Below are positions 2,164-52,111 of a stretch of DNA of 64,000 bases, one piece after another. Every line of letters starts with the position of its first letter. Positions within the stretch are counted from its first letter, which is position 1. The notes below the pieces were generated by a model, which ran no database searches, was not told where the DNA came from, and saw only the letters and a program-made list of their open reading frames with translations. Source of the DNA: Patescibacteria group bacterium (lineage in GTDB: Bacteria; Patescibacteriota; Patescibacteriia; UBA1558; S5-K13); NCBI GenBank assembly GCA_028692545.1, contig JAQUXC010000002.1, positions 28,082 through 92,081 of the forward strand. The letters run 5' to 3'. The position numbers and the translations under genes were made by a program.

Positions 2164-2241
2164 AAATATTTGTGAATAAATAAAAAAAATAGTATAATCT
2201 TTATATAAAATAAATTAATTAATTCTCATCTATAAATTTAT

Positions 2242-2655
2242 ATGATGGGAAAGAAAGGACAATTAAAAATGTCAAAAACAGTAAAACACATCGTAAGTTT
2301 CATGTTGATACTTGTGATGTCATCATTTATTGTGATGAATGTAAGCGCAGTAACAAGCATGACTGGAACAGGAGCTGTTACTATTCCTACAGTTGGAAGA
2401 TTAGGAACAAATGATATCGATACAACAGCTACAACAATAATAAACTCTGCTTTAGTATTGTTGGGTCTTGTAGCATTAGTAATAGTACTAATGGGTGGAT
2501 TCAAATGGATGACTAGTGCTGGAAATGAAGAAAAAGTAGGAGAAGCAAAAAAACTATTAGGCGCTGGAGTAATAGGGCTTATAATAGTATTTGCTGCTTG
2601 GGGTATAGCAAACTTTATAATGAATGCTGCACAATCAGCTGCAACAACCACATAA
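2242..2655 (+). CDS. TrbC/VirB2-like pilin paralogue 2. The start may instead be 2269 (MSKTVKH), which has an AAAGGA upstream.
   Basis: GGFKWMTSAGNEEK motif plus two hydrophobic helices. Confidence 0.7.
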   Translation: MMGKKGQLKMSKTVKHIVSFMLILVMSSFIVMNVSAVTSMTGTGAVTIPTVGRLGTNDIDTTATTIINSALVLLGLVALVIVLMGGFKWMTSAGNEEKVGEAKKLLGAGVIGLIIVFAAWGIANFIMNAAQSAATTT

Positions 2656-2716
2656 TCAGCGTATATTTTAAACTCAACCCTAAACCTAGACAAAATAAAT
2701 GGTTTAGGGCTGGAAT

Positions 2717-3133
2717 TTGAAATATAAAACTATGAAACTTACAAAAAAAATATTTATTTTTATTTATTTACTTATTTTAGTCAATTTTTTTCAGATTACA
2801 CTATTTACAGCAAAGGCAATTGAAACACCAGCGGGTGGAAGTTATGGACTTACTGACACAGCTAGACAAGCAGGACTTACTGAGGATGGAAAAGTAGAAC
2901 AACCACAAGACATAGCTTCAAGAATAGTAGGTTTTATTCTTGCATTTGTAGGCGTAATAATACTAAACAATATGATATTTGCAGGATATGCATGGATGAC
3001 AGCAGGTGGAAGCGAAGAAAAAATAAAAGCTGCAAAGCAAAAAATGACAAATTCAATAATAGGATTAATTATAATCTTAGCTTCATATATCATAGTAAAT
3101 AGTGTCTTGGGGCTTCTCAACCAAGTCTTATGA
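2717..3133 (+). CDS. TrbC/VirB2-like pilin paralogue 3
   Basis: AGYAWMTAGGSEEK motif. Its stop overlaps the next start (ATGA). Confidence 0.7.
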   Translation: MKYKTMKLTKKIFIFIYLLILVNFFQITLFTAKAIETPAGGSYGLTDTARQAGLTEDGKVEQPQDIASRIVGFILAFVGVIILNNMIFAGYAWMTAGGSEEKIKAAKQKMTNSIIGLIIILASYIIVNSVLGLLNQVL

Positions 3134-3531
3134 TAAAAAACAAAATAATAACTTTTATTATATTAATTTCTATTAGCACTCCTCTCCTAGTTGGTGCTGC
3201 AATACCAATATTACAAAGCGGTGCTGAGGTTCAAAAAGATTTAGACACATCTGCAGAAATACAAGGCTTCAATACATACTCCCAAAATGAAATGATGTCG
3301 GTAAGAATGAAAACTATAAATACAATAATATCTTATGCGCTAAGCTTTATAGGTATAATATTTCTTATAAATATAATAATCGGCGGATTCAAATGGATGA
3401 CTGCAGGTGGAAATGAAGAAAAAATCACCAGCGCAAAACACACTGTAAATAATTCTATACTAGCACTCATTATAGTACTCGGTGCATATATAATAAGTAA
3501 TCTTATAACACAACTAATATCATTATTTTAA
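3130..3531 (+). CDS. TrbC/VirB2-like pilin paralogue 4
   Basis: GGFKWMTAGGNEEK motif. Confidence 0.7.
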   Translation: MIKNKIITFIILISISTPLLVGAAIPILQSGAEVQKDLDTSAEIQGFNTYSQNEMMSVRMKTINTIISYALSFIGIIFLINIIIGGFKWMTAGGNEEKITSAKHTVNNSILALIIVLGAYIISNLITQLISLF

Positions 3532-3540
3532 TTTAATATT

Positions 3541-3969
3541 ATGTTCAAAAAAATTACACTTTCTCTAATAACAATTACAGTAATTATATCTATATTTCAA
3601 TTAAGCATTCCAACAACACAAGCTACGGGAACTGGTGGCAATACTTCTATACCAAATATACCAAATTTAAAAAATAGCAAAACCATATTAGATACATCTG
3701 CTGTTATGATAGGATTTGATACAAGTAAAAGTATAGAAGCAACTATTGGAAATGTTATAAAAATAGCATTGTCTCTTATAGGAATATTGTTTTTGATACT
3801 TATTATAATAGCTGGATTTCAATGGATGACAGCAGGTGGAAATGAAGAAACGGTTACTAAATCAAAAGCAAGAATAAAAAATAGTGCAAATGGACTTCTT
3901 ATAATACTTGGTGCATATATGGTAACTTACTTTATATTAGATATAGTTTTAAAACAAACATTAAAATAA
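3541..3969 (+). CDS. TrbC/VirB2-like pilin paralogue 5
   Basis: AGFQWMTAGGNEET motif. The DNA is near-identical to paralogues 6-8 across the motif. Confidence 0.7.
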   Translation: MFKKITLSLITITVIISIFQLSIPTTQATGTGGNTSIPNIPNLKNSKTILDTSAVMIGFDTSKSIEATIGNVIKIALSLIGILFLILIIIAGFQWMTAGGNEETVTKSKARIKNSANGLLIILGAYMVTYFILDIVLKQTLK

Positions 3970-3983
3970 ATTCAACTAATACC

Positions 3984-4020
3984 AGCTCAGTCGAGTTAAA
4001 CCCGATCAACTGGTTGAGCT
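3984..4020. repeat. Imperfect palindrome containing CAGTCGAGTTAAAC(C/T)CGATCA; a member of a three-copy intergenic motif
   Basis: Inverted repeat agctcagtcgagtt/aactggttgagct. Related copies lie at 7681-7722 (minus orientation) and 45485-45510. Confidence 0.5.
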
Positions 4021-4029
4021 AAAAAATAT

Positions 4030-4446
4030 ATGAAAAAAAATATAACAAAATATTTACTAACACTAATAATTACTATATTTGTTTTTAATATTATCTTGAC
4101 TCCTATAAGTCACGCTGTTACGGGTGTTTCTGGATCAGACACTACTTCAGCACAAATAATGAAAAATCTTCAAACAACTGCAGTGACTAGCGCTGGATAT
4201 AAACAAGGTGATGTTGTAAGTACAATAGCAATTATAGTAAGAATTGTACTTAGCTTGCTTGGAGTATTTTTCCTCATACTTATAATAATGGGCGGATTTC
4301 AATGGATGAGTGCAGGTGGAAATGAAGAAACAGTTACGAAGGCTAGAAAAAGGATAACAGATGCATCAATAGGTCTTGCTATTATAATATTTTCGTATTT
4401 AATATCAATGTTTATAATGGGATTCTTTTATTCTGCTACAATTTAA
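4030..4446 (+). CDS. TrbC/VirB2-like pilin paralogue 6
   Basis: GGFQWMSAGGNEET motif. Confidence 0.7.
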   Translation: MKKNITKYLLTLIITIFVFNIILTPISHAVTGVSGSDTTSAQIMKNLQTTAVTSAGYKQGDVVSTIAIIVRIVLSLLGVFFLILIIMGGFQWMSAGGNEETVTKARKRITDASIGLAIIIFSYLISMFIMGFFYSATI

Positions 4447-4488
4447 TATAAATAAATATCCAGTTATAAAAACTGGACAATCATAACT

Positions 4489-4956
4489 ATGAATAAAAAA
4501 TTAGACGAAAAAATCATCAAAATATCGAAAAGTATAATTATTGTATTTATAATATTTTTTTCAATAACAAATATACAAAATATATTAGCCACTGGGACAG
4601 AACCAAATGATGCAATACTAAGTGGCGGTGAAAAATTACAACAATTTGCTGGTGAAGCTGGAATCAAACAATATACAGATCCAGTAGTAGTTATTACAAG
4701 TATAATAGGTTTTGCACTTGGATTTCTAGGGTTGTTTTTTTTGATACTTATACTGGTAGGTGGATTTCAATGGATGAGCTCTGCTGGAGAAGATGAAAAA
4801 ATAAACAAAGCAAAAGCAATTATAAAAAGTGCTACTATAGGATTGTTCATTGTACTTACTTCATGGATTATAGCAACTACTATTTTTGCATTAATTAATC
4901 ATGGTGCTGGCGGACCAGAAGCTTGGTGGGGTTTTGGATGGTCGTTTGGTTCTTAA
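4489..4956 (+). CDS. TrbC/VirB2-like pilin paralogue 7
   Basis: GGFQWMSSAGEDEK motif and a C-terminal Gly/Trp-rich tail. Confidence 0.7.
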   Translation: MNKKLDEKIIKISKSIIIVFIIFFSITNIQNILATGTEPNDAILSGGEKLQQFAGEAGIKQYTDPVVVITSIIGFALGFLGLFFLILILVGGFQWMSSAGEDEKINKAKAIIKSATIGLFIVLTSWIIATTIFALINHGAGGPEAWWGFGWSFGS

Positions 4957-4977
4957 TAAATTTCTATTTTTAAACTT

Positions 4978-5008
4978 TAAAGGGGAGCCATGCAACTCCC
5001 CTTTTTTA
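4978..5008. terminator. Bidirectional intrinsic terminator between the convergent pilin array and the 5020-5496 gene
   Basis: aaaggggag-ccatgcaa-ctcccctttttt: a GC stem flanked by an A-run and a T-run. Confidence 0.7.
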
Positions 5009-28667: not shown

Positions 28668-28742
28668 GCGAGTATCGTATAGTGGCTATTATACGGCCTT
28701 GCCAAGGCTGAGAGACGGGTCCGATTCCCGTTACTCGCTCCA
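28668..28742 (+). tRNA. tRNA-Gly (anticodon GCC); integration target
   Basis: Acceptor GCGAGTA/TACTCGC, anticodon arm CGGCC-TTGCCAA-GGCTG, T-arm ACGGG-TCCGATT-CCCGT, and CCA. Confidence 0.8.
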
Positions 28743-28773
28743 TTAAAGACGCCTATTTATGGGTCTTTTTTGT

Positions 28774-29853
28774 TTATGGCAAACAAATTGTGGCCATATT
28801 GTGGCCAATATTATATTTCTGTTCACTTAAAGACCTTATTGCATCAACTGTCGCAAGTGGTCCAAGATGAGAATATCTCATTGTAGTTTTAACATCAGAA
28901 TGCCCCAATAACTCTTTTACAACAAGTATTGAAATTCCTCTTTGAACTAAATGAGAAGCAAATGTATGTCTTAAATTATGCCATCCTATTTTTCTTAAAC
29001 CACTTAACTGACAGGCACTATGAAGTTTGTTTAGTGCCAAATTTGAAGTATAAGATTTTCCATTAACATTTGGGAATACTAAACCTGTTTTTATAGATCT
29101 GGCTTCAAGCATATCAAGAAGTTGTGGTGCAAGAGGGATATATCTAATCTTATTACTTTTTGTGCTCCCAATTAATCCTCTGGTAATAGAACGACGAATA
29201 ATAATTTTCTTATTCTTAAGGTCAACATCACTCCAATCAAGGACTGCCAATTCCCCAAATCTTAAACCAGTCATATAAACCATCAGAATCATTTCTCCTA
29301 TTATTTCATTTGCGCCAATTAGAAGTGAAGATAACTCTTCATTACTTAGAAAATCAAATTTCTGTGGTGGAACATTTAATAACCTCATTTTTGGAACTTG
29401 ATTTACACACTCCCATTCTTGAGCCGTCTTAAGACATTTACTTAGAATTGTTAAAATATTGTTGATTGTCTTTGGACTTAATCCTTCCTCAAGTTTCTTT
29501 GCTTTGAACTCCTCTATCTTCAGCACACTTATCTTGTTTAGTGGGAGTTTACCAAAAAAAGGAATTAAATGTTTATCAAGAATATACTTTTTTCCTACTT
29601 GCTCAGATGGTTTATTATTATTCATTACATAGGTTTTATGCCATTTATATGAAAACTCTTCAAATAATGGAATCTTAATCTCTTTTACTTTTTCAACTAT
29701 CTCTTCACCACGAGCTAATTTCTGTCTAATCAAAGACTCGTAAACTTTGGCCCCAGCAAAGCTATTTTCAGGACTAGGCATTCTATATCTTATTCTATTG
29801 AATCTAAAACCTATCCAATATTTTTTTCCTCTCTTAAAAATACTCATATTCAT
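28774..29853 (-). CDS. int: Tyrosine site-specific integrase (phage integrase family)
   Basis: C-terminal catalytic box WHNLRHTFAS...LLGHSDVKTTMRYSHL (R, HxxR, Y). It sits adjacent to the tRNA. Confidence 0.9.
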   Translation of the reverse strand: MNMSIFKRGKKYWIGFRFNRIRYRMPSPENSFAGAKVYESLIRQKLARGEEIVEKVKEIKIPLFEEFSYKWHKTYVMNNNKPSEQVGKKYILDKHLIPFFGKLPLNKISVLKIEEFKAKKLEEGLSPKTINNILTILSKCLKTAQEWECVNQVPKMRLLNVPPQKFDFLSNEELSSLLIGANEIIGEMILMVYMTGLRFGELAVLDWSDVDLKNKKIIIRRSITRGLIGSTKSNKIRYIPLAPQLLDMLEARSIKTGLVFPNVNGKSYTSNLALNKLHSACQLSGLRKIGWHNLRHTFASHLVQRGISILVVKELLGHSDVKTTMRYSHLGPLATVDAIRSLSEQKYNIGHNMATICLP

Positions 29854-39375: not shown

Positions 39376-40530
39376 TTGGCTTGGAAACTATTGTATAATA
39401 TTTATATGGATAAAGTTAAATCAATAAATAAAGAAAATTTAGAAATTGCAAGAAATAATGTCGGTCTGAGTACTATGTCGGCAACAAGAAAAATTTCAAA
39501 ATCAAAAATTGATTTAGTTTTTGAATGGGAAAATGGAACATCACTGCCAACGTGGAATCAAATAACTAGATTAGCAAAAATATATGATATTCCTGAGGTA
39601 CTCTTTTTTTCTAGAGAGTCTATTAAGAAGAACAAAACAATTCCAGACTATAGGATTGGACAAGATTCATATAATGATGAAAAAATACAGAAACTCATTA
39701 ATATTGTTATTAGAAGACAACGATGGTTAAAACAAAATATTAAATATAACCTAAAAAAAAATGTTTTACAGGGTAGTGGTAAAGAGATTCAAAATCCAGA
39801 TCAATTAGCTTTATTAATAAAAGAAAAACTAAATATTGATTCTTATGAAATAAAAAATATTTCTGGAGTAAGCTCTCGCAAAAAAGTATTGGATTATTTA
39901 ATAAGAAAAGCAGAGGATTGTGGAATATTTATTGGAAAAACCATACATTACCATAGAATAAAAGTAGACGATATGAGAGGCCTTTATATTTCTGATGATT
40001 ATTGTCCTTATATTATTCTTAATAGAAGAGATGCTCTTTCTGCACAGATATTTTCGCTTATACACGAGTTAGCTCATTTGTTTAGAAAAACTGACTCAAT
40101 ATCAAATAGCTTAGAGTTTAGACATTTAAATAAAAACATAAACTACGAGGAAATATTTTGTAATAAAGTTGCCGCTGAATTGTTATTGCCTACAAAAGAT
40201 CTTAAAAAAACATTTTATGATATATCCGACATTAATAATATGGCAGAAATTTACAAAGTTAGTAGATTAATGATTTTTTATAGACTTAAAGATCTAAATA
40301 AAATTGATAAAAATGATATAGATAATTTAGAAGAAAAAATACGTAAAGAAACTGATGAAGACGTTATACATAAAAATAATAAAAAAAATACTGGCGGAAG
40401 TTATGTTAATAATATGAGAGATTCAAATGGAAAACTTTTTAATAACATTATTTTAGAACTTTATTTTGATAAAAAAATAAATTACGTAGAGGCATCTAAT
40501 TTACTCAAATTCTCTGTTGAAAGTCTATGA
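39376..40530 (+). CDS. XRE-family HTH fused to an ImmA/IrrE (COG2856) zinc metallopeptidase
   Basis: N-terminal HTH LEIARNNVGLSTMSATRKISKSKIDLVFEWENG and C-terminal HEXXH (HELAHLF). Confidence 0.75.
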   Translation: MAWKLLYNIYMDKVKSINKENLEIARNNVGLSTMSATRKISKSKIDLVFEWENGTSLPTWNQITRLAKIYDIPEVLFFSRESIKKNKTIPDYRIGQDSYNDEKIQKLINIVIRRQRWLKQNIKYNLKKNVLQGSGKEIQNPDQLALLIKEKLNIDSYEIKNISGVSSRKKVLDYLIRKAEDCGIFIGKTIHYHRIKVDDMRGLYISDDYCPYIILNRRDALSAQIFSLIHELAHLFRKTDSISNSLEFRHLNKNINYEEIFCNKVAAELLLPTKDLKKTFYDISDINNMAEIYKVSRLMIFYRLKDLNKIDKNDIDNLEEKIRKETDEDVIHKNNKKNTGGSYVNNMRDSNGKLFNNIILELYFDKKINYVEASNLLKFSVESL

Positions 40531-41015
40531 TAAATAATTTAACAAAAATAAAATACTTAGTTGATACAAATGTTTTAATAGAGCTTTCTCTCTGGAAGCC
40601 TATTGCTCTAAATTTAAACAAAGATTTTTGGTATAGACTCTCAGATGCTTTAAAGAATGATAAATGGGTACTTCTCGATGTTGTCGTTTGGGAGGTGCGT
40701 TATGATAAAGACTTAAAAAAATGGCTCTCTGAACAAAAAAATAAAGGGTTGGTTAAAAAAATTAATGATAATAATAAAAATCGTGCTGTTGAAATCAATA
40801 ATCAATACAAAATAATTGATGACATTACTGGCAAATCAACGGTAGACACTTATTTGTTAGCTTATGCAGAAGCCGAAAATTTAGGTATTTTTTCAAGAGA
40901 AAGCTCTAGAATTAATTCTAATCAATTATACAAAATTCCAGATATATGTAATATTTTAAATATCAATAAAACTAGAAGCCCTAAGGCTTTTTTAAAAGAA
41001 ATAGGATTTAATTAA
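40527..41015 (+). CDS. DUF4411-like PIN-fold protein; candidate toxin partner of the HTH-ImmA protein
   Basis: 4-nt overlap with the upstream gene. N-terminal YLVDTNVLIE acidic PIN-like motif. Size about 160 aa. Confidence 0.5.
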   Translation: MINNLTKIKYLVDTNVLIELSLWKPIALNLNKDFWYRLSDALKNDKWVLLDVVVWEVRYDKDLKKWLSEQKNKGLVKKINDNNKNRAVEINNQYKIIDDITGKSTVDTYLLAYAEAENLGIFSRESSRINSNQLYKIPDICNILNINKTRSPKAFLKEIGFN

Positions 41016-41075: not shown

Positions 41076-41120
41076 AGCAATTCCCTACAATCACAGTTCT
41101 AACGTCCTCCACTAAGGAGT
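41076..41120 (+). repeat. Copy 1 of a roughly 40-bp repeat, (agcaattccc)tacaatcacagYYctaacRtcc...aaggag
   Basis: Copies 2 and 3 lie at 44171-44208 and 45443-45480. Each precedes a higher-GC gene or region. Confidence 0.6.
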
Positions 41121-41225
41121 ATATAATAGTCTTAAATGACTATTTTTGTTTATTATTATATTTGACATAAACTAAACATTATTGTAATGTGTAAACAAAT
41201 TTAACATTCTAATCATCAGGAGGAA

Positions 41226-42935
41226 ATGATGAAAAAGCTTCTTATTGTGGCCATTTTAATGGCTTTTTGCCTAGTTTTAATAGCACAAGCACCTGATACT
41301 CTTTGGACAAGGACCTTTGGCGGTCCAAACAATGAGTGTATGGAAAATATTAAAGCTACCAGTGATGGGGGTTGCATAATGGTTGGATCAACCAATTCTT
41401 ATAGGAGTGGTGGTCAAGATGCATACATAATCAAAATTGATATTTATGGAAATTTACAATGGAGTAGAACTTTTGGCGGTAGTCAACAAGACATTGCTTA
41501 TTGTGTTGATGAAACACCAACTGGTTATTGCATAACTGGATTTACAAGGTCTTATGATAGTCCAGACAATACCAATCTTTGGCTTTTTAAAGTTGATACA
41601 GCCGGAAGTTATCAATGGATGAGAACTTACGGTGGCAGTCAAGATGATGTCGGCGTATCTTTGCAATATACCACAGACAACGGATATATTATTACTGGTT
41701 ATATTCGTTCAAATAACGAATTATCAGGTGATCCATCCGGCGACATATGGCTTATTAAAACGAACTGGTTTGGTGAAAGAGAATGGCACAGGCGTTTTGT
41801 TTTTGATGATTGTTGGGATGTCGGAAGATCTGTTACTCAAACATCTGACGGAGGCTATGCAATAGCCGGAAAACAAAACAATAAAGCCTGCTTGATTAAA
41901 ACTGATTCTAATGGTTCTTTACAGTGGACAAGAGATTTTCCTGGTTATCCAGATTGCTATTCCATGCAACAGATTTCTGATGGTGGTTATATCTTATGCG
42001 GTGCTACCACTAACATATCTGGCACTTGGGATTTCTATTTACTCAAAACTGACTCAGATGGAAATTTACAATGGAGTAGAAATTTTGGTGGTACTCAAGA
42101 AGATTATGGTCGTTCTGTAGCCCAAACATCAGATGGTGGATATGTAATATTTGGAACGACAAACTCTTTTGGTTTAGGAAATTATGATACTTGGGTAATC
42201 AAAACCGATGCTAATGGAAATGAACAATGGAATAAAACTATTGGCACCACTGGAGATAATCAAGGTTATTCAATAGCACAAACATTGGATGACGGATATG
42301 TAATGGCCGGATATTCAGATGAACAAGCATATGCAATTCGTCTCAGAGGTAGACTCGTATTATTTAATGGAACCCCAACATCTGGATATATTCCACTAAC
42401 GGTTACTTTTTCTGATCAATCAATAATTCAAAATTTAGTAACTTCCTGGCAGTGGACATTTGGTGACGGTCAAACCTCATTAGAACAAAATCCAATCCAT
42501 ACCTATACGCAAGCTGGGCAGTATTCCGTGAAATTAAAAATCATTGATTCGAGCGGTGTTGCTGATTCGCTTATCAAAACCAATTACATCACAGTCCTGG
42601 AAGTGCCACCTGCTCCACCTGAGAACTTAACAATTACAATTTCAGGTCGCAATGCAATTTTGAATTGGGAACCAGTTACTACAACAATCTTCAATAACCC
42701 AATAACTATTACTGGTTACGTAATATACTTCAGTGAAATTCCTGATACAAACTTTTGGTATCTCGGATGCACCGAAGCCATAACCTACACACATTATCGC
42801 GTGACTCAATATGCCAGCGGTATGTTCTACAGAGTTGTTGCTGTCACAGATGATTGGAATCGAATAAGAAGCATAACACAAAGAAATCCTCATATTCAAC
42901 TTGGGCAACTAAATGCCTTGTTGAAAAAAGAGTGA
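41226..42935 (+). CDS. Secreted beta-propeller-repeat (SBBP-like) protein with a PKD domain and a C-terminal Ig/FN3-like region
   Basis: Signal peptide. At least eight repeats of TFGG(S/T)QxDxG.S...DGGY...G.T.S. PKD motif WQWTFGDGQTS...HTY. Strong AGGAGG RBS. GC is visibly higher than in the neighbours. Confidence 0.75.
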   Translation: MMKKLLIVAILMAFCLVLIAQAPDTLWTRTFGGPNNECMENIKATSDGGCIMVGSTNSYRSGGQDAYIIKIDIYGNLQWSRTFGGSQQDIAYCVDETPTGYCITGFTRSYDSPDNTNLWLFKVDTAGSYQWMRTYGGSQDDVGVSLQYTTDNGYIITGYIRSNNELSGDPSGDIWLIKTNWFGEREWHRRFVFDDCWDVGRSVTQTSDGGYAIAGKQNNKACLIKTDSNGSLQWTRDFPGYPDCYSMQQISDGGYILCGATTNISGTWDFYLLKTDSDGNLQWSRNFGGTQEDYGRSVAQTSDGGYVIFGTTNSFGLGNYDTWVIKTDANGNEQWNKTIGTTGDNQGYSIAQTLDDGYVMAGYSDEQAYAIRLRGRLVLFNGTPTSGYIPLTVTFSDQSIIQNLVTSWQWTFGDGQTSLEQNPIHTYTQAGQYSVKLKIIDSSGVADSLIKTNYITVLEVPPAPPENLTITISGRNAILNWEPVTTTIFNNPITITGYVIYFSEIPDTNFWYLGCTEAITYTHYRVTQYASGMFYRVVAVTDDWNRIRSITQRNPHIQLGQLNALLKKE

Positions 42936-43174
42936 TAAACAATTTCAAAATCAATAAAAGAAGCCTTGGGATAATATCTCGAGGCTTCTCTATTTTTTTG
43001 CATTTCTACCAATATTGTTGTGGCCATATTGTGGCCATATTGTGTCCAAGAAATGATTATATGTAATGAAGTTAATAGGAATTGATGGCATTTGATAATC
43101 AATATTATTCAGTATTAATGGGCTTTTATTCACTTTACTCAATGTTTATCAAATGTTTGTAAAAACTGCTTTCT

Positions 43175-43203
43175 CGGGTCCGATTCCCGTTACTCGCTCC
43201 ATT
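43175..43203 (+). repeat. attR: a 29-bp direct repeat of the tRNA-Gly 3' end
   Basis: Identical to 28716-28744. Confidence 0.8.
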
Positions 43204-43337
43204 CGAAAGAGCCCATTTATATTGGGTTTTTTTGATACCATTAAAGAAAAAAGCAAACTGAGATATATTTTTATTTGGATTGTTGATATAATTAAATTAG
43301 GATAATTAATGTCGAGCTGAGCTCAAAATATATTTTT

Positions 43338-44126
43338 ATGAAAAAAATTATAATTTTATTAGTAATAATATTTTTATTAAGTGGATGCACTATAATAGAT
43401 ACTGTTTCCAATAAATTTACAAAGAAAAATTCTATTAAAAATACTTCTGAAACAAAAAATGATAAATTTAATAACCCAGTAAAAAAAAGTGACCTAGGAT
43501 CTGATATTTTTTTTGATAAACAATATCAAGCACCATTAGTTATTAGCAGAGAGGATTTTGATAATAGTTGTTCTCGTGCAATAGATACTGGTGGTAAGTA
43601 TAATTGGGTCTGTAATTCAACCATGAATGAAAAAATTGGCTGTATATCAAAAATAGGACCTCACTATCTTAATTTTCATAGTAATATAGATATGTTAGAT
43701 ATCTATAGGTGTAATAGTGTAGAGGACCCAATGGGTAAACATACCGGATTAACAAATAGTAGCTATTCATTTATATATTTATCAATTGGTGAAAAAAGAG
43801 TAATCGTTTATTATGATTGGGATGATTTTATAAAAGACTATAAACCAATTATAGATTCTAAAAAATCAGCGCGATATTATCTTTTTAGCGCGGGTTTTAC
43901 TATACCCCCAATAGAGGAAGCACTGATAAGTAAAACTGAGGATGGTTATTTAATACCTGGTTTTCATTATTATGATAATCGCAAATGTGATTATAGTAAT
44001 AAGTCTGGCGATTATAAGATTTATAAAGCAGATTTTTTAGTCGACCTTAATGGCATAATAAAATTATTTGGTGATAACAAATTTGTCGGCACAACAGAAT
44101 GTTTTCCTAAAATAGAACTAAATTAG
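43338..44126 (+). CDS. Putative lipoprotein, hypothetical
   Basis: LLSGCTI lipobox; 262 aa. Confidence 0.55.
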   Translation: MKKIIILLVIIFLLSGCTIIDTVSNKFTKKNSIKNTSETKNDKFNNPVKKSDLGSDIFFDKQYQAPLVISREDFDNSCSRAIDTGGKYNWVCNSTMNEKIGCISKIGPHYLNFHSNIDMLDIYRCNSVEDPMGKHTGLTNSSYSFIYLSIGEKRVIVYYDWDDFIKDYKPIIDSKKSARYYLFSAGFTIPPIEEALISKTEDGYLIPGFHYYDNRKCDYSNKSGDYKIYKADFLVDLNGIIKLFGDNKFVGTTECFPKIELN

Positions 44127-44366
44127 GACATGAAATACTTTATTATTTTTATAGGATAATTATAAATTACTCACAATCACAGCTCTAACATCCTCTACCA
44201 AGGAGCTCCATAAAAAAGTCCTTTATTTAAAGGGTTTTTTGTTATACCCGTAAATAGAATTGAACTACTATTGACAAATATAAAAATTTATTTTTATATT
44301 TGACTTAATTTTACCATATTGATACCATTATATGTTAAAAAATAAATAAAATATTAGGAGGACAAC

Positions 44367-45086
44367 ATGGAGCTTATAATTATATTTATAGTCACCTTTA
44401 TTACTCAAATGCTTGGGGTTATGGTGGGCGGAAATAGAAATGTTTTACTTCCACTGCTTATGTTTATGGGTTTACCATCAAATGAGGCTTTGGCTACATT
44501 TAAAACAGGAGGATTGGGATCGTTTGCGTCATTGATAAAATTCCATAAACATCACTATATAAAATGGAAAATGGCAATTTATCTAATTCCATTTATAACA
44601 ATCGGCAGTTCAATAGGAAGTATAATTGTTATAAATATGAATCCAGAATTATTTAAAAAAATAATATCTATTTCAGTTCTTATTTCTTTACTAATGTTCT
44701 CGTTTAGAAAAAAGAATAAAATAAGAGAAATTAAAATAAAAAATAATTTCTGGATTTATATAATGTCACTTTTTACTGGGCTTGTGAGCGGATGTATAGG
44801 TTTCATGGGAATTTTTCTACAATATCTTTATATGGGAAGTGGAATGACTTTTATAGAAGCAACCGCCACAAAGAAAATCACAAATTTCGTAAGTAACATT
44901 GTTTCTTTTATAATATTTGTACTCGCAGGCATAATAAATTGGCGCATTGCCGGTATAATGTTTGTTGCTTCATTTTTCGGATCATGGATAGGAACATCAT
45001 TGGGTATAAAAGTTGGTAATGTTTGGCTAGAAAAGATTTTTGTTATAGTAACATTTGTCGGCGTAATAAAAATACTATTCTATTAA
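44367..45086 (+). CDS. TSUP (TauE/SafE) family membrane transporter
   Basis: Seven or eight TM helices with the two-repeat architecture typical of TSUP. AGGAGG RBS and elevated GC. Confidence 0.5.
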   Translation: MELIIIFIVTFITQMLGVMVGGNRNVLLPLLMFMGLPSNEALATFKTGGLGSFASLIKFHKHHYIKWKMAIYLIPFITIGSSIGSIIVINMNPELFKKIISISVLISLLMFSFRKKNKIREIKIKNNFWIYIMSLFTGLVSGCIGFMGIFLQYLYMGSGMTFIEATATKKITNFVSNIVSFIIFVLAGIINWRIAGIMFVASFFGSWIGTSLGIKVGNVWLEKIFVIVTFVGVIKILFY

Positions 45087-45665
45087 TAGAATATATTAGG
45101 CTCTGTGCAACGATAGCACAGAGCCTTTTAATTATACGTTAAAAATCAAAAATTTTACCTATAAAAATAATATATTTTATAAAAATCATTTTGGAATAAA
45201 AATATTATTAAAATTATGGCACCAAAAGATGAATTTGATAAGAAAAAACCACTAAAAAATTCTCCTAATTTTTTATCATATATTTGGATATATAAGTTTG
45301 GGAATAGCCATTTATTTTATTCTTTGTTTTGTATTGCATTGATGCTGGACAAGCTTGATAGTGTTATAGTGAAGTAGTAATTTTACTATCAATAAAAGGT
45401 GACTTTAAAGTCTTCCCCTTTTCTCTTTTTGATAAAATTTTCTAGCAATTCCCTACAATCACAGTCCTAACGTCCATAACCAATGAGCTCAATCGAGCTT
45501 AACTCGACCAACAAAAAAATCCATTTTTATAGGCTTCATATCCGGTCGTATAACTGGATTTTTGTTATACCACTAAATTAAAATGTATGAGATTTAACAT
45601 CTTTACAACCAAAACCACTATTAACATGATGTTGATGGTGATTTATTCGCGAACTCGTTTTATAC

Positions 45666-45851
45666 TTAAGCGCTATGCTTGGTATTTATAGAAAGTTGCA
45701 AGCACATTCCCATGATCGCGATAAACATCATTATTGTTGCACCAGACCAATCATTGGCGCCATTACCGCGATAGACAATAGCATACAAAATCATCAATAT
45801 TCCAACGATGAAAGTTAGTATAGAACTTACTGACGAAGAATTCATTGCCAT
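45666..45851 (-). CDS. Small two-TM membrane protein, hypothetical
   Basis: 61-aa ORF with elevated GC. Confidence 0.3.
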   Translation of the reverse strand: MAMNSSSVSSILTFIVGILMILYAIVYRGNGANDWSGATIMMFIAIMGMCLQLSINTKHSA

Positions 45852-45975
45852 ATATTTATTAGTTATAATTTAGTTTTGATATATAAATTGTTAATTATTC
45901 AAAAAATTTTTGTTTATCTAAAGTAAAAAATTAAACTTGTTTGTACAAATTTAAAAGAGTTTAAAAGGTTCTTTA

Positions 45976-46122
45976 TTAAACCCTTTTTCCCTTTATTAAT
46001 CTTACCAAAATCATAATAACCGCTATTACTAAAAGAGCGTGGATAAATCCACCAAGAGTATAAGATGTTACTAGACCTACAAGCCAAAGAACAATGAAAA
46101 TAATTGCAATTGTTGTTAACAT
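45976..46122 (-). CDS. lmo0937-family-like small membrane protein (48 aa); below the ORF-track cutoff
   Basis: Manual translation gives MLTTIAIIFIVLWLVGLVTSYTLGGFIHALLVIAVIMILVRLIKGKRV. The architecture resembles the lmo0937 small-protein family. Confidence 0.45.
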   Translation of the reverse strand: MLTTIAIIFIVLWLVGLVTSYTLGGFIHALLVIAVIMILVRLIKGKRV

Positions 46123-46324
46123 AAGCGTTTTTATTTATTATTTATTAGTTATATTAACCATAGCACCATTTGGATTATTAAGATATAGAAGTTAAATTGA
46201 ATTGTTTTTGTTTTTTTTAAAGCCTTTTAATAGGCTTTTTTGTTATATTGAAAAATAAATCAAACTAAAATATATTAAAAGATTCAAAAAAGGAGCTTAT
46301 TAGCTCCTTTTTTATAATATTCTA

Positions 46325-47338
46325 CTATTTATTAAACAAACTTTTTGCCAAATCCCAATATTCTGGATTTCCATTCAATTTTTGTAAATACCACCACTCT
46401 ACACCCCACAAATAACACTGATTGAGGTCTGAATCAATTGCATATTGAAGATTTGCTTCAAATTGTTTTAGATCAAAAGATTTATTTGATTCATCTGGTT
46501 TCAAATCTTTAAGCGTTCCCTTTGGAACCCATGGCTCTGCTTGAAGCTCACTTATTATCATATTATCAGAACGCAATTTCAAAAAACTTGCCTTGAATTT
46601 ATAAAACCAAGCTGGAATTGGATACCTAAAATACCCAAAAATAGGATTCCATACCACACGATACATTGTAGTACCAAATTTGTCTCCAATATCCCACTCT
46701 CTTCTCCATGAAGAAAGTTCTCCTGATGCAGTTATAAGAATTGGTCTTTTGTCTAATTCTTTTACTAATTTTACCTCTCTTCCTAGAAATGCTTCATCAC
46801 CATCTGGACATATTCCAAAAGTATTTAAAAGTGGTTCATTTTCTACCTGCCACATTATTATTTCATCTCTATCTCTATATTTAGAAACTACATGATCAAT
46901 CATGATAAGTGTTTGATCTTTTATATTTGAAACTCCCATAGAAAAAGTCCAACTTGGTGCATGACACTCTGGCCATCTTGGAAGACGCCAACCAATATTT
47001 GCAACAAATTTTACTCCTCTTTTTTTACCTTCATTAAACATATAATCATAATCACTAAAATCATATTTCCCCTTTTCAAATTCTATATCATCCCAATAGA
47101 TAGGAATTCTCACATATTTTACTTTCAAATCATCAAGCATAGAAATATAAACTTCTTTCCAATCAAGACCTATTTCACCACAAAGTTTTTTGGAAAACGT
47201 TACTGCCCAATAATTTTCTTTTGTATTATGAAGATTAATTTTGCCAGGATAATGCTTTGCAAATTTTAAATACCACAAAAGAAATATTATTAAAAATATT
47301 AATAGAATATATATAATCATTTTTTTGTTTAATTTCAT
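46325..47338 (-). CDS. Membrane-anchored clan GH-A (GH5-like) glycoside hydrolase
   Basis: N-terminal TM. The WQVENEP motif carries the acid/base Glu of the NEP signature, and Trp-rich barrel motifs are present. Confidence 0.6.
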   Translation of the reverse strand: MKLNKKMIIYILLIFLIIFLLWYLKFAKHYPGKINLHNTKENYWAVTFSKKLCGEIGLDWKEVYISMLDDLKVKYVRIPIYWDDIEFEKGKYDFSDYDYMFNEGKKRGVKFVANIGWRLPRWPECHAPSWTFSMGVSNIKDQTLIMIDHVVSKYRDRDEIIMWQVENEPLLNTFGICPDGDEAFLGREVKLVKELDKRPILITASGELSSWRREWDIGDKFGTTMYRVVWNPIFGYFRYPIPAWFYKFKASFLKLRSDNMIISELQAEPWVPKGTLKDLKPDESNKSFDLKQFEANLQYAIDSDLNQCYLWGVEWWYLQKLNGNPEYWDLAKSLFNK

Positions 47339-47353
47339 ATTAATAATAAAAAA

Positions 47354-48286
47354 TTATGATATAAGATATAAACCAATAGCAATTATAAATATTGATATTG
47401 CTTTTTGAATAATTATTGATTTTGATATATCTTCTTTTATAGCTTTTGGCCTTAACATTGTAATTACAGCTCCAAGAATTAAAAGAAATGCATACTGTAC
47501 ACCCTGTAATGCATTTACAAAAACCACAGACCCGAGTGCAATTGCATAATTTTGTAAAAAAGAGCCTACAGCTGCGAGACCTTGATTTCCAAAAAACAAA
47601 AACTTATTTTTTGTTTTCTTTAATAATTTTATGCTCTTAAATATTCCTTCTCTATCTTTTTTATCAACAAGTAAAAATAGTACCATAATAAAACTTCCCA
47701 ATCTTATCCAAATAAAACCACTCATAAATGGCTGAATATTGTACATATATTTTGTACCAATAAAAAACAAAGAAAAAAATAATGCTGCCAGAATTGCAAC
47801 AATTATTCCTTTTGTATCATCATCATCTGTATCACCAAACCACATTGCAAATTTATGCCATATAGTTTTTTTATTTGGAATCCAAGAAATAATCAAAGTA
47901 CCAATAAGAAGTAATATTATACCAATCCATTCGCGAACACTAAATTTTTCATTAAAAAATGAAATTGAAAAAAATATTGTAAATATTGGAATAGAACCAC
48001 CAATAAGAGTAATAACTTTTGAAGTATCACCATCTTTTAATGCCTTATACATCAAAAGTAATGCCAAAGGAAACATGGCTCCAATAATAATATTTAAAAG
48101 AAATGTCACAATTCCAGGCCAAATAAGATAAAAAGGAGCAAGGACAAAAACAATCATTCCAAGACATCCCACAAAAAACGTATAAGCTTTACTATTAGGA
48201 ACTACATTTCCTAAAATAAACTTATCTCCAATGTTTACAAAAGCCATTATCAAATAAGCTATAATTGCTATTAAAAACCAAGACAT
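47354..48286 (-). CDS. EamA/DMT-family-like 10-TM transporter
   Basis: 310 aa in two roughly 5-TM halves. Confidence 0.45.
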   Translation of the reverse strand: MSWFLIAIIAYLIMAFVNIGDKFILGNVVPNSKAYTFFVGCLGMIVFVLAPFYLIWPGIVTFLLNIIIGAMFPLALLLMYKALKDGDTSKVITLIGGSIPIFTIFFSISFFNEKFSVREWIGIILLLIGTLIISWIPNKKTIWHKFAMWFGDTDDDDTKGIIVAILAALFFSLFFIGTKYMYNIQPFMSGFIWIRLGSFIMVLFLLVDKKDREGIFKSIKLLKKTKNKFLFFGNQGLAAVGSFLQNYAIALGSVVFVNALQGVQYAFLLILGAVITMLRPKAIKEDISKSIIIQKAISIFIIAIGLYLIS

Positions 48287-48313
48287 ATTTTTTCTTATTA
48301 TTTATTAAAATTA

Positions 48314-49645
48314 TTACAAACTATTAATTATTTCTTTTAAATTTTTCATTTTTAGAGAATTAAAATCTTCTTCTGTAATAGAAGACGATGCATACAAAGC
48401 ATTTTCTGATTTACTATCATATTTCTGATATTTTCTTGGATAATTTGCTTCCAAGTCACCATTTGGCAATACAAAAATTCTATATTTTTTTAATTCTTTT
48501 ATAAAATTATCACCTGATACATTTTTCAATTTCAAATCAATACGATTTAGTAAGTCTCTCAAATAATTACCTTGTAACATATCTCTATCAAAAATCATAA
48601 CATAAGGAATATCAAAAATATTCAAAACTTCAGCATACACAACAGCATTTCCTTTTCCATATGTTTGAATTACTTTTATATCTTTTTCACCCATATAAAA
48701 ATTATTTATCAAAGATGTAAACAACAACTTGTCTGATACACCTTCTACAAGTACAACTTCATCAGAGAAAAACATTTCTAAATTATCCGCATTTAATTCT
48801 TTTATTAGTCTATCTAAATTATAATTTTTGTTTTTTATTGTAAGAACACTTGTAATATTTTCTTTTTTCACAACTTTTATAAGTTGAGGTAAGGAAACTG
48901 GAGTTATAAATAAAGGAGAATGTGTAGTAAATAAAATTTGACCAGAATTGCTATTTTGCATTGCCCACAACAATTTTCTTATCATAGCAGGATGCAAATG
49001 ATTTTCTGGTTCATCTATCATTATAATATTATATTCTGGATGATAAATATATAAAAGTATAGTAAATACCCTACTAAAACCACTTCCAAGCCAATCAATG
49101 GTAGCATCTCTATCCCCTTCTTTTATACCTTTGTGTTCATAATTTATATCCAATGCATTTTTTGTAGTAGATATTTTTGGAAAGTGCTTTTTTAAATTAT
49201 ACTGAAACTCATAAAAATTTTGTTTGTATTTAAAAATATTTTTAAAATCTTCATTTATACAATCAAGATCCAAAAATACATTTTCATTTAATCTTTTTAT
49301 TTTTGAAGATAGATAATTAGATATTTTTTCATCATATTCAATGTCTTTTTTTTTAAATGACAATATTCTTTTTTGATTTTTTAAAATCAGATTTGCCCTA
49401 TCACTTGGAAATAAAAATTCTTTCACCTCAAATTCTGTAAATTCAATATTTAAAATAATATTTGATTTATCATAAAATAGAGATGTATTATCTTTTGTTG
49501 GGTCAATACAAAGCTCTATTGCATCTAAAATATTTGATTTACCAGAGTTATTTTGTCCAATAAAAGTATTCATCAAATTCAAATCCAAATCTATAGGATT
49601 TTTTATACTTTTATAAAGATTAATTTTTATTTTATCTAAAAACAT
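48314..49645 (-). CDS. OLD-family ATPase-Toprim nuclease (class 1, stand-alone)
   Basis: Walker A GQNNSGKSN, ABC-type IMIDEPENHLHP and a C-terminal Toprim VLVEGVSDKLLF. There is no adjacent UvrD/helicase gene. Confidence 0.75.
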   Translation of the reverse strand: MFLDKIKINLYKSIKNPIDLDLNLMNTFIGQNNSGKSNILDAIELCIDPTKDNTSLFYDKSNIILNIEFTEFEVKEFLFPSDRANLILKNQKRILSFKKKDIEYDEKISNYLSSKIKRLNENVFLDLDCINEDFKNIFKYKQNFYEFQYNLKKHFPKISTTKNALDINYEHKGIKEGDRDATIDWLGSGFSRVFTILLYIYHPEYNIIMIDEPENHLHPAMIRKLLWAMQNSNSGQILFTTHSPLFITPVSLPQLIKVVKKENITSVLTIKNKNYNLDRLIKELNADNLEMFFSDEVVLVEGVSDKLLFTSLINNFYMGEKDIKVIQTYGKGNAVVYAEVLNIFDIPYVMIFDRDMLQGNYLRDLLNRIDLKLKNVSGDNFIKELKKYRIFVLPNGDLEANYPRKYQKYDSKSENALYASSSITEEDFNSLKMKNLKEIINSL

Positions 49646-49647
49646 AT

Positions 49648-50985
49648 TTATAACAAATTTACATCATCAATCTCATCTATTTTATTGTTTAACACAATAT
49701 TTTCTATATGATACGTACCCAGCTTTGGTGCATTCATAAATCCCTCCATAGCTGCCTCAGCCATCCAACCAGAATCAATCCAATCAAAAAGCCACTCATT
49801 TACATATTTTGGATTTTTACTATCAACCCCTGCACCAATAGAAAGTAACCATCTTCTATTATAATTTTCTTGGGATCCAAGTGGTTCAGACATTATAATT
49901 GGAATTCCAAGTCCCGCATAAAAACTAAGCTCAGATGGTTTTGTCCATAATATATCTGTGGTTTTCAATTGTTCATTAAACATTTTGAAATATGTCATCT
50001 TGTCCTCTGAATATAAAATTTTTACATTTTTGGAATTATCTATCTTATTATTCTTCAAATATTTTTCATAGTACAAATAAACATCATTTCTATTACCAGC
50101 AACTAATATAAGTCTAAGCTTTCCTTTTTTGATATGATCTCTTAGGCTTTCCAAAATTGTAACTCCTAAATCACGCTGAGCACCAGCACCACCAACAGCA
50201 AACATTATTGTAAGTGGATGTGCATTTTTCTTTATTTGAGAAACTGGACACAGATATCCTTCTATAAATTTTGCATACTTTTTTCTATATATTCCCTTTG
50301 GATCCAAATTATATATTCTTGATTTCAAACTATTCTTTAATATATTCATATTCACTCCACCAATATTTTCTTTTGGCAAAGGAAAACCTGTCAAGAATAT
50401 ATTTTTTGAATTTACTCCATAAAGCATCAGCCTTTCTTTTACTCTTTTATTTGGGACTAAATATTTTATTCTACTTGTTTTTGGGTGATACGGAGCCCAA
50501 GCACGAGCAATATCTGCATCACAAACTATACAATATATTTCACCTTTATATCCATAATATTCTGCAAAATATGCTGGTACAAAAAAAGTAGTTACAAAGG
50601 GAAGCGGATTTTTATTTAATTCATCTATTAATTTTTTGCCAAGACCGTGTTTAACTTGATTGAAAAAATATTTTTGTTGATAAGAATTATTTGACAAATC
50701 TCTTTTTGGGTAATATGGATCTATTTTTTGCATATCATCCATTATGCCAAAAGCCAAATTTCCTAAAATTGGAAAATTCTTATACATTGATATTATTTCA
50801 TACCATTTTCTTCCACCTTGCCAAGATTTTTTTTCTTTTTTACTAATCCCTTGATAACTATTTGCATTTATTATTCCACCTTCAGAAACAGAAACAAATG
50901 GATAAGCAGCGCGCTGATGACCATATCCCATATCTACAGCTACTACATACATTTTGCTGTTTTTTAAAGATTTTTTATCCTTCAT
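49648..50985 (-). CDS. GT-B glycosyltransferase (MGDG-synthase/UgtP/MurG-like)
   Basis: N-terminal VVAVDMGYGHQRAA (G-x-GH motif) and a second-domain FAVGGAGAQ. Confidence 0.5.
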   Translation of the reverse strand: MKDKKSLKNSKMYVVAVDMGYGHQRAAYPFVSVSEGGIINANSYQGISKKEKKSWQGGRKWYEIISMYKNFPILGNLAFGIMDDMQKIDPYYPKRDLSNNSYQQKYFFNQVKHGLGKKLIDELNKNPLPFVTTFFVPAYFAEYYGYKGEIYCIVCDADIARAWAPYHPKTSRIKYLVPNKRVKERLMLYGVNSKNIFLTGFPLPKENIGGVNMNILKNSLKSRIYNLDPKGIYRKKYAKFIEGYLCPVSQIKKNAHPLTIMFAVGGAGAQRDLGVTILESLRDHIKKGKLRLILVAGNRNDVYLYYEKYLKNNKIDNSKNVKILYSEDKMTYFKMFNEQLKTTDILWTKPSELSFYAGLGIPIIMSEPLGSQENYNRRWLLSIGAGVDSKNPKYVNEWLFDWIDSGWMAEAAMEGFMNAPKLGTYHIENIVLNNKIDEIDDVNLL

Positions 50986-51123
50986 TTTATTATAAATATT
51001 AATTTGTTTAATTTAATTATAACATAAAAATTATATTAAAAAACCAATATTGACATATCGTTTTTGATATGATAATATTTAGATAGTTATCTAAATATCT
51101 AAATACAATTTAAAAATAATTAT

Positions 51124-52083: not shown

Positions 52084-52111
52084 AAAAAACCCTTTATTTA
52101 AAGGGTTTTTT
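52084..52111. terminator. Bidirectional intrinsic terminator
   Basis: aaaaaa-cccttt-attt-aaaggg-tttttt. Confidence 0.7.

Follow-up and report, generated by a model that had tools for sequence, protein, structure and literature searches.

A conserved box-and-terminator module bounds variable gene cassettes near tRNA-Gly in a few Patescibacteria

Patescibacteria, or members of the candidate phyla radiation (CPR), have very small genomes and rely on host cells, and the variation of their surface proteins is poorly understood. Here, we describe a repeated element found in 64,000 nucleotides of a Patescibacteria group bacterium (assembly GCA_028692545.1, contig JAQUXC010000002.1, positions 28,082 to 92,081; the whole stretch is referred to as the window). 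The element is a module consisting, in order, of a ~50-nt sequence, which we call the box, the hexanucleotide GCTCCA, a terminator hairpin with its T-run and tail and, often, a TTGACA-type promoter. It is a newly described conserved non-coding element, real and non-random, that bounds variable cassettes near tRNA-Gly in a few Patescibacteria; read conservatively, the box still ranks among the few non-coding elements of strong conservation described for these bacteria and is a ready marker for variable loci. As to its origin, we tentatively favour a model in which the modules, which double as terminator and promoter between cassettes, are attR-like junctions of cassettes that lack an integrase and accreted at the tRNA-Gly 3' end, an account that we regard as plausible rather than probable.

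The core of the box, ACAATCACAGYYCTAACRTCC, is matched exactly at 41087, 44173 and 45455, three times in total and always on the plus strand; with up to three mismatches allowed, 0.01 matches are expected by chance, and none of 100 shuffles reached three. The three-copy repeat that an initial annotation of this DNA had reported is therefore real, with its extents corrected to 41076-41119, 44164-44210 and 45444-45492, and a repeat finder returned it as a 70-nt family (D7) of 67-77% identity. As that annotation had also seen, copies 1 and 3 have in common the upstream sequence AGCAATTCCC, to which ~25 more T-rich bases can be added. A hidden Markov model of the box, run over 77 kb of the organism's own genome (the window plus 4.4 kb of left and 8.7 kb of right flank, the flanks taken from contig JAQVYI010000002.1 of GCA_028708725.1, a Patescibacteria metagenome-assembled genome), detected no copy beyond the three, all of which lie inside 4.4 kb, and the repeat is thus not the ubiquitous promoter motif that had been envisaged as an alternative.

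Beyond the window, eight copies were found on four other contigs, three of which belong to related Patescibacteria, and the resulting set comprises 11 copies on five contigs (three in the window, two in L002, two in L021, three in L026 and one in L005). The first scan pattern demanded a G at box position 10 and therefore missed the T-variants of L002 (L2B), L021 and L026; with this pattern, public genomes gave two loci, one of them real (L002), and metagenomes gave four, one of them plausible (L005, Ga0172379_10000972, of whose 62.8-kb contig 1.2 kb was seen), while three viral scans for the box gave nothing real. Further relatives were reached with SMC as an anchor, followed by a look-up of contigs of related organisms, and are grouped into four genus-level clades with SMC ~59% identical between them: A (L002, L023, L024 and L025), B (L017 and L018), C (the window) and D (L021 and L026). 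Against this 59% identity of SMC, the box is 84-90% identical across genera. The copies are direct repeats, two to three per locus and 0.6-2 kb apart. In the window, L021 and L026 they occupy the hypervariable DNA directly downstream of tRNA-Gly(GCC) and share the orientation of the tRNA; their upstream neighbours in L021 and L026 are S16 and tRNA-Gly(GCC). In clade A the S16-tRNA segment is inverted relative to SMC, which matches the orientation of the L002 boxes. No box was found in the same region of L017, L018, L023, L024 and L025 in the sequence examined. The distant copy in L005 (160-290), which preserves chiefly the first 27 nt of the box, is located on a contig of 35% GC, flanked on one side by the 3' end of a gene for an AbiEii-type toxin-like protein and on the other by a divergent gene for a membrane protein.

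The cargo between the boxes differs from locus to locus. In the window it consists of a TSUP gene and a 53-aa open reading frame (ORF), in L026 of small membrane or unknown proteins, and in L002 and L021 of an orthologous minus-strand Cys-rich membrane protein, which is 33% identical overall with a well-conserved C-terminal part; a protein search with the L002 Cys-rich protein matched only itself. The first units past the tRNA in the window and in L021 are homologous in their upstream region (promoter) and signal peptide, and their mature proteins are unrelated. The arrays of L021 and L026 encode no recombinase.

The main argument for an att-like origin of the module is the homology of its 3' part to the 3' flank of tRNA-Gly. 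The GCTCCA that follows the box is identical to the last six bases of tRNA-Gly, and when tRNA ends are aligned with box ends it is the sole fully invariant block, with the hairpin, T-run and tail next in every sequence. When a profile is made solely from the 3' modules of the boxes, it recovers the L026 tRNA-Gly flank with E=9e-8 and the flanks of L021 and the window with E ~0.008. In a by-eye comparison, ~36 of 38 bases are equal between the L026 tRNA flank and the flank of its box L26A, and in L021 the tRNA and box L21A have the same terminator and 'alpha' tail behind them. In the box-free L023, the flank directly behind tRNA-Gly contains a second hairpin (GAAAGAAAAAAATAATAAAAAAT-CCAGTTGT..ACAACTGG), and this flank is found in L026 after box L26A, 2.0 kb from the tRNA, and in L021 after box L21B, 2.9 kb from it. 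Judged by these sequences, L023 on the one hand and L026 and L021 on the other look like empty and occupied versions of the same site. Features of tRNA-type accretion are present, namely a site at the 3' end of the targeted tRNA and occupied as well as empty states among relatives. What recurs at the junctions is GCTCCA together with the tRNA terminator and flank, and alignments revealed no longer tRNA fragment. The left edge of one box subfamily, CAATTCCCC, resembles the T-loop and T-stem of the relatives' tRNA-Gly, with a control fraction of 0.005-0.07 that makes the likeness suggestive only. A derivation of the box itself from tRNA-Gly was rejected, as global and local alignments were not significant and a long-gap alignment, like the left-edge test, was suggestive only. 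Neither the terminator in every module nor its homology to the tRNA-Gly flank had been mentioned in the initial annotation.

The box has the consensus AATTCCCY ACAATCACA K YY CTAAC N TCC NNN ACC AAGGA or, in a longer form that lists the triplet variants and runs on into GCTCCA, AATTCCCY ACAATCACA K YY CTAAC N TCC (TCN/ATA/TGG) ACY ARGGAGCTCCA. A hairpin with a T-run follows the box in every copy; the hairpins of the window are unlike in sequence, with pairing kept. Located 3' of the T-run is a G(T)TATAC-like tail, with GTTATAC itself in five of ten tails and GATTT, GTTTAT or ATTGTG in the others, and a TTGACA-type promoter is found downstream of the module in five of the 11 copies, including copies 1 and 2 of the window. 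A terminator is also present ~20 nt upstream of several boxes. As this anatomy shows, the module halts transcription that arrives from the upstream cassette and starts it anew for the downstream one. Between GCTCCA and the terminator there are 0-180 nt of GC-rich hairpins. Such inserts, 20-180 nt long, are seen within or after the box in AT-rich DNA at L021 18137-18300, L002 1645-1745, window 45493-45536 and L026 13438-13457, where the third L026 box, L26C, carries a 20-nt hairpin inside the box; the L021 insert folds at -87 kcal/mol (z=-6.45). They may be RNA expansion segments or small palindromic insertions.

Copy 1 of the window (box at 41076-41119, plus strand, AGCAATTCCC TACAAT CACAG TT CTAAC G TCC TCC ACT AAGGAG) is situated inside an integrated island and has a terminator-like 3' module with hairpin and T-run at 41126-41148 (plus strand; ATAGTC-TTAAAT-GACTAT TTTTTG). 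A promoter-like TTGACA-17-TAATGT (41162-41190, plus strand) separates it from the PKD/beta-propeller gene (41226-42935), which has an AGGAGG ribosome-binding site in front and a terminator behind it (42959-42989). The box of copy 2 (44164-44210, plus strand) starts 38 nt past the stop codon of a lipoprotein gene (43338-44126) and ends in GGAGCTCCA; the first letters after it, from 44211, are TAAAAAAGTCC, and its 'T1'-type terminator module (44212-44249, plus strand) is composed of a hairpin with T-run (44212-44241) and a GTTATACCC tail and is near-identical to the L002, L26B and L26C modules of other genera. Next come a 'beta' tail, GAATTGAACT-nn-TATTGACA, and the TSUP promoter or promoters (44257-44305, plus strand), where TTGACA-18-TATATT (44271-44300) gives 11 of 12 matches and a TTGACT stands at 44300, and then the TSUP gene (44367-45086), again with AGGAGG in front and followed by a terminator (45098-45126). 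The box of copy 3 (45444-45492, plus strand) has the degenerate end TGAGCTCAA, and its 3' part (45493-45571, plus strand) contains an additional hairpin (45493-45507), a T2-like arm that is degenerate (45513-45536), the terminator hairpin with T-run (45540-45564) and a GTTATACC tail. The AGGAGG motifs before the PKD and TSUP genes, the -35-like boxes (TTGACA at 41162 and 44271, TTGACT at 44300) and the terminators after both cassettes were thus rightly recognized in the initial annotation. Its proposal of a recombination or promoter module that bounds cassettes survives in part: single-gene units do lie at a tRNA-Gly hotspot, the boxes flank unlike genes in relatives and a downstream TTGACA promoter is found at the frequency given above, whereas the box itself makes a poor promoter and recombination is a reading of these patterns.

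A contig from an independent assembly, L010 (Logan contig SRR22315502_2552, equal to window 44211-51101), starts at the first base after the GGAGCTCCA of copy 2, that is, at the box|terminator (CCA|terminator) junction; it could represent a population variant at this junction or a plain assembly break. A look-up of the lipoprotein gene for population variants gave only identical contigs.

The tRNA gene that anchors the array, tRNA-Gly(GCC) (28668-28742, plus strand), is a proven integration site. A 14.4-kb island is inserted at it, the ends of which are exact 29-bp repeats of tRNA-Gly: attL (28716-28744, plus strand), followed by an island-borne terminator mimic (28745-28779), and attR (43175-43203, plus strand), a 29-bp tRNA 3' fragment behind which lie the native terminator and flank of tRNA-Gly (43204-43239), the latter being homologous to the 3' modules of the boxes. 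The attL side provides a precedent within the window for an element that carries its own 'tRNA end + hairpin + TTTTTTGTTTAT'. The island encodes a tyrosine integrase (28774-29853, minus strand) of generic type, which scores below every curated Xer and IntI cut-off, and TTGTG[G/T]CCA repeats 11 bp apart near both island ends (28788-28807; 43018-43048) are probably sites of the arm type for the integrase. The last unit within the island is made up of copy 1 and the PKD gene, and copies 2 and 3 lie outside, an arrangement that had been suggested previously and that the 29-bp repeats confirm. Past attR, the order is native tRNA terminator and flank, lipoprotein gene, copy 2, TSUP gene, 53-aa ORF and copy 3, beyond which a conserved block of minus-strand genes begins.

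As for composition, all cassettes had been described as GC-elevated, which holds for the PKD gene only: its GC content of 0.38 is the highest of 40 large ORFs (mean 0.278, standard deviation 0.038), whereas the TSUP gene (0.296) and the lipoprotein gene (0.272) are ordinary. The PKD gene is foreign in composition even to its island (0.267 without this gene), and the stretch after copy 3 has a GC content of 0.33 with its ORFs on the minus strand. Other cargo of the island includes secreted proteins, both trypsin-like and with cEGF repeats, an FtsK-gamma protein and, on its right side (39376-41015), a toxin-antitoxin (TA)- or defence-like pair of an M78 peptidase and a DUF4411/PIN protein. A second defence- or TA-like pair, an OLD-like ATPase and a DUF6938 protein, is found in the conserved minus-strand block (48314-50985). 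At the far left of the window (2200-5000) there are about seven paralogous genes for proteins like type IV secretion system pilins (TrbC/PF18895), with a repeat periodicity of ~161 nt (family D1). In the box-free L018 (13686-13850), tRNA-Gly is followed by a ~160-nt GC-richer, structured-looking region and then a GIY-YIG endonuclease gene, which points to another mobile insertion at this hotspot. Cumulative GC skew peaks and gene orientation converges at window ~45000-46200, with L017 and L018 showing a like convergence; this region may be a replication terminus. A dif/Xer site at the skew switch was considered and rejected, because the sole dif-like match (46114-46141) overlaps the start of a small ORF on the minus strand, lacks conservation in relatives and is probably due to chance.

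In the accretion model that we tentatively prefer, small integrase-less units, each made up of one to three cargo genes together with a terminator mimic, a promoter and a box, would join serially at the tRNA 3' end by site-specific recombination, with each arrival shifting the older units downstream, so that every box-GCTCCA-terminator junction would be an attR-type scar or site. The box would act as the cassette-borne arm, GCTCCA as the shared segment of crossover or identity and the terminator with its tail as the flank, and the recombinase would be supplied in trans or would have been lost, as in cis-mobilizable elements. Recombination itself, the box as element-side arm and a recombinase acting in trans are what we infer from the sequences compared here. 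The model gains support from the 14.4-kb island with its integrase and its own terminator mimic at attL, which occupies the same tRNA, from the box carried within that island and from orthologous boxes with unlike cargo (TSUP as compared with the Cys-rich membrane protein). If the modules are active recombination sites, they would belong to a compact tRNA-based cassette system that shuffles genes for membrane proteins, lipoproteins and secreted proteins, each with its own terminator and promoter.

Several points weigh against this model. No recombinase of the required specificity was found at these loci, the 29-bp T-loop-type core used by the resident integrase is missing from the boxes, and excised or circular forms were not seen. 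Copy 1 is located 2.1 kb from the attR of the island rather than at it, the identity with the tRNA amounts to just six bases, and there is no inverted-repeat core around GCTCCA except for the palindrome GGAGCTCC. Inserts of 20-180 nt part the box from the terminator in four copies, and the high identity of the box between genera would also suit an RNA or protein-binding function selected in the host. Finally, a perfect palindromic terminator (AAAAAACCCTTTATTTAAAGGGTTTTTT then GGTTATAT; 52084-52111) is located between convergent genes away from any box and is close to the T1 hairpin, so that part of the hairpin similarity could be generic.

The alternative that survives best is that the modules encode sibling small RNAs (sRNAs), a possibility that we take seriously while thinking it on balance unlikely. 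The box and hairpin would then be a gene of ~60 nt (up to ~240 nt with inserts), which starts at an internal YAYWAT hexamer and ends at the intrinsic terminator and, as a detail of this same unlikely reading, the unstructured conserved 5' part CUAAC-N-UCC(UCC) would be a seed, for example against Shine-Dalgarno regions. The layout is indeed sRNA-like, with a conserved 5' sequence, GC-rich stem-loops of variable length and a terminator, and the terminators upstream of boxes make several copies tiny insulated units; the L005 copy has kept the 5' part most of all. The box is predicted to be single-stranded save for a weak UCC/GGA helix, in the loop of which the 20-nt hairpin of L26C is placed, and only the terminator hairpin folds. 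U-G wobbles among the hairpins, together with better z-scores, favour the plus strand. RNAalifold, however, reports three invariant pairs plus the terminator and no covariation within the box. As a promoter the box is poor: the -10-like hexamer does not vary at A2 and T6 in any of the 11 copies and L26B has a perfect TATAAT, but the first -10 position is a C in seven of 11, a conserved -35 and a TG extension are missing and the start is pyrimidine-rich; by-eye checks for sigma-54, extracytoplasmic function (ECF) sigma and minus-strand promoter motifs identified none that is conserved. Also against an sRNA, box L21A starts 6 nt past the upstream stop codon. A duplex scan against 57 translation-initiation regions gave best values of -20 to -21.6 kcal/mol, compared with a shuffle best of -17 +/- 2 and a shuffle minimum of -23 to -26, and hence nothing beyond chance. 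Among the Rfam covariance models, only the two tRNAs exceed the gathering thresholds in the window, and relaxed scans of the window and of the L021 and L002 elements gave chance-level matches only (E>=0.35, that is, at least 0.35). An sRNA function would also leave unexplained why the copies are found only beside tRNA-Gly and why they have its flank in common. If true, this would be the first candidate regulatory RNA family for the clade.

A host insulator is a rather unlikely second alternative. Here, the module would be a conserved terminator-promoter block with a box that a host protein recognizes in DNA or RNA form. After DNA uptake, homologous recombination would swap the cassettes, blocks and tRNA flank serving as arms, and no site-specific recombinase would be involved, in keeping with the recombinase-free arrays of L021 and L026. 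By our own count, the whole ~125-nt block of box, hairpin with loop, tail and -35 is ~89% identical between genera (copy 2 compared with L26B). Between the two boxes of L021 there is no difference over 46 nt, suggestive of gene conversion, and the first cassette, with its promoter and signal peptide kept and its mature protein replaced, suggests allelic replacement between conserved flanks. Left unexplained are the exact GCTCCA junction and the tRNA flank re-created behind each box, and no protein that would bind the box was identified.

A more ambitious version of site-specific accretion, and one that we consider doubtful, is an integron-like capture platform docking on the tRNA gene. In such a platform, tiny integrase-less cassettes would each bring a box together with a mimic of the tRNA-Gly 3' end and terminator, which would take the attC role, and a recombinase acting in trans would insert and excise units at GCTCCA, giving a self-insulating array of surface and membrane genes in which every junction has a terminator and a promoter.

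[quoted passage not shown] It is a multi-copy intergenic element, and both strands are open across it with peptide-like conservation (QFPTITVLTSSTKEL on the plus and SSLVEDVRTVIVGNC* on the minus strand), but the aligned copies have no terminal inverted repeats or target duplications and are clustered within 4.4 kb of the 77 kb. Codon periodicity is not significant (permutation p 0.37-0.50 for ten sequences), a start codon is missing, the ORFs run into breaks within 10-25 codons, and the 20-nt insertion in L26C shifts both frames, which counts against a coding remnant. The box peptide has no similarity to the integrase C-terminus, and a remnant of the latter was rejected. Least probable of all are genuine integron attC sites, that is, folded single-stranded sites at the 3' ends of promoterless cassettes recombined by IntI, which we reject as all defining features tested failed: direct repeats do part single-gene units, and the CTAAC of the box and the GTTATAC past the hairpin recall R''/R' inverse cores, yet the R'' candidates YYCTAAC are without the leading purine (model RYYYAAC / GTTRRRY), GTTATAC is limited to half of the tails, the box is unpaired and ~30 nt outside the hairpin with no palindrome across the whole site, bottom-strand folding is not significant (z=-1.5; range -0.6 to -1.8), the integrase stays below both model cut-offs (67.4 bits against 265 for TIGR02249, 38.5 bits against 435 for NF011946), promoters are carried by the cassettes themselves and L021 and L026 have no integrase.

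Three known systems offer themselves for comparison. Sibling sRNAs such as LhrC1-5, Qrr, OmrA/B and the csRNAs are clustered and combine a conserved seed with an intrinsic terminator. Like them, the modules are paralogous short units at one locus, with a 5' part that is conserved, C/U-rich and unstructured, then a variable middle and finally a Rho-independent terminator; unlike them, they come with no convincing promoter, covariation or target, and the link to a tRNA-Gly flank and to cassette borders is foreign to such sRNAs. Integron attC sites and the Vibrio VCR arrays similarly consist of mostly single-gene units in one orientation, split by a ~100-nt repeat, and with integron arrays the modules have in common fairly homogeneous repeats and variable cargo, often of unknown function, so that the integron can be seen as a functional analogue. 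In contrast to integrons, there is no R''/L''-L'/R' palindrome and no IntI, promoters are present on the cassettes and the anchor is a tRNA gene rather than attI. Accretion at tRNA or tmRNA genes, as in the CIMEs of Streptococcus ICESt1/3 (PMC5704250), the tycheposon islands of Prochlorococcus with their partial tRNAs and remnants (bioRxiv 10.1101/2020.12.28.424599) and the ssrA islands of Dehalococcoides (PMC3146451), provides the closest comparison. Such arrays repeat a recognizable tRNA fragment of 20-45 nt, whereas the junctions described here repeat GCTCCA and the post-tRNA terminator only and add a ~50-nt box without significant tRNA similarity; the units are very small (0.6-2 kb, one to three genes), the resident integrase has a different core, and a terminator-promoter is built in. 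The likenesses are serial integration at the 3' end of an RNA gene, with newer elements pushing older ones outward, and integrase-less remnants with att-like junctions and strain-variable cargo.

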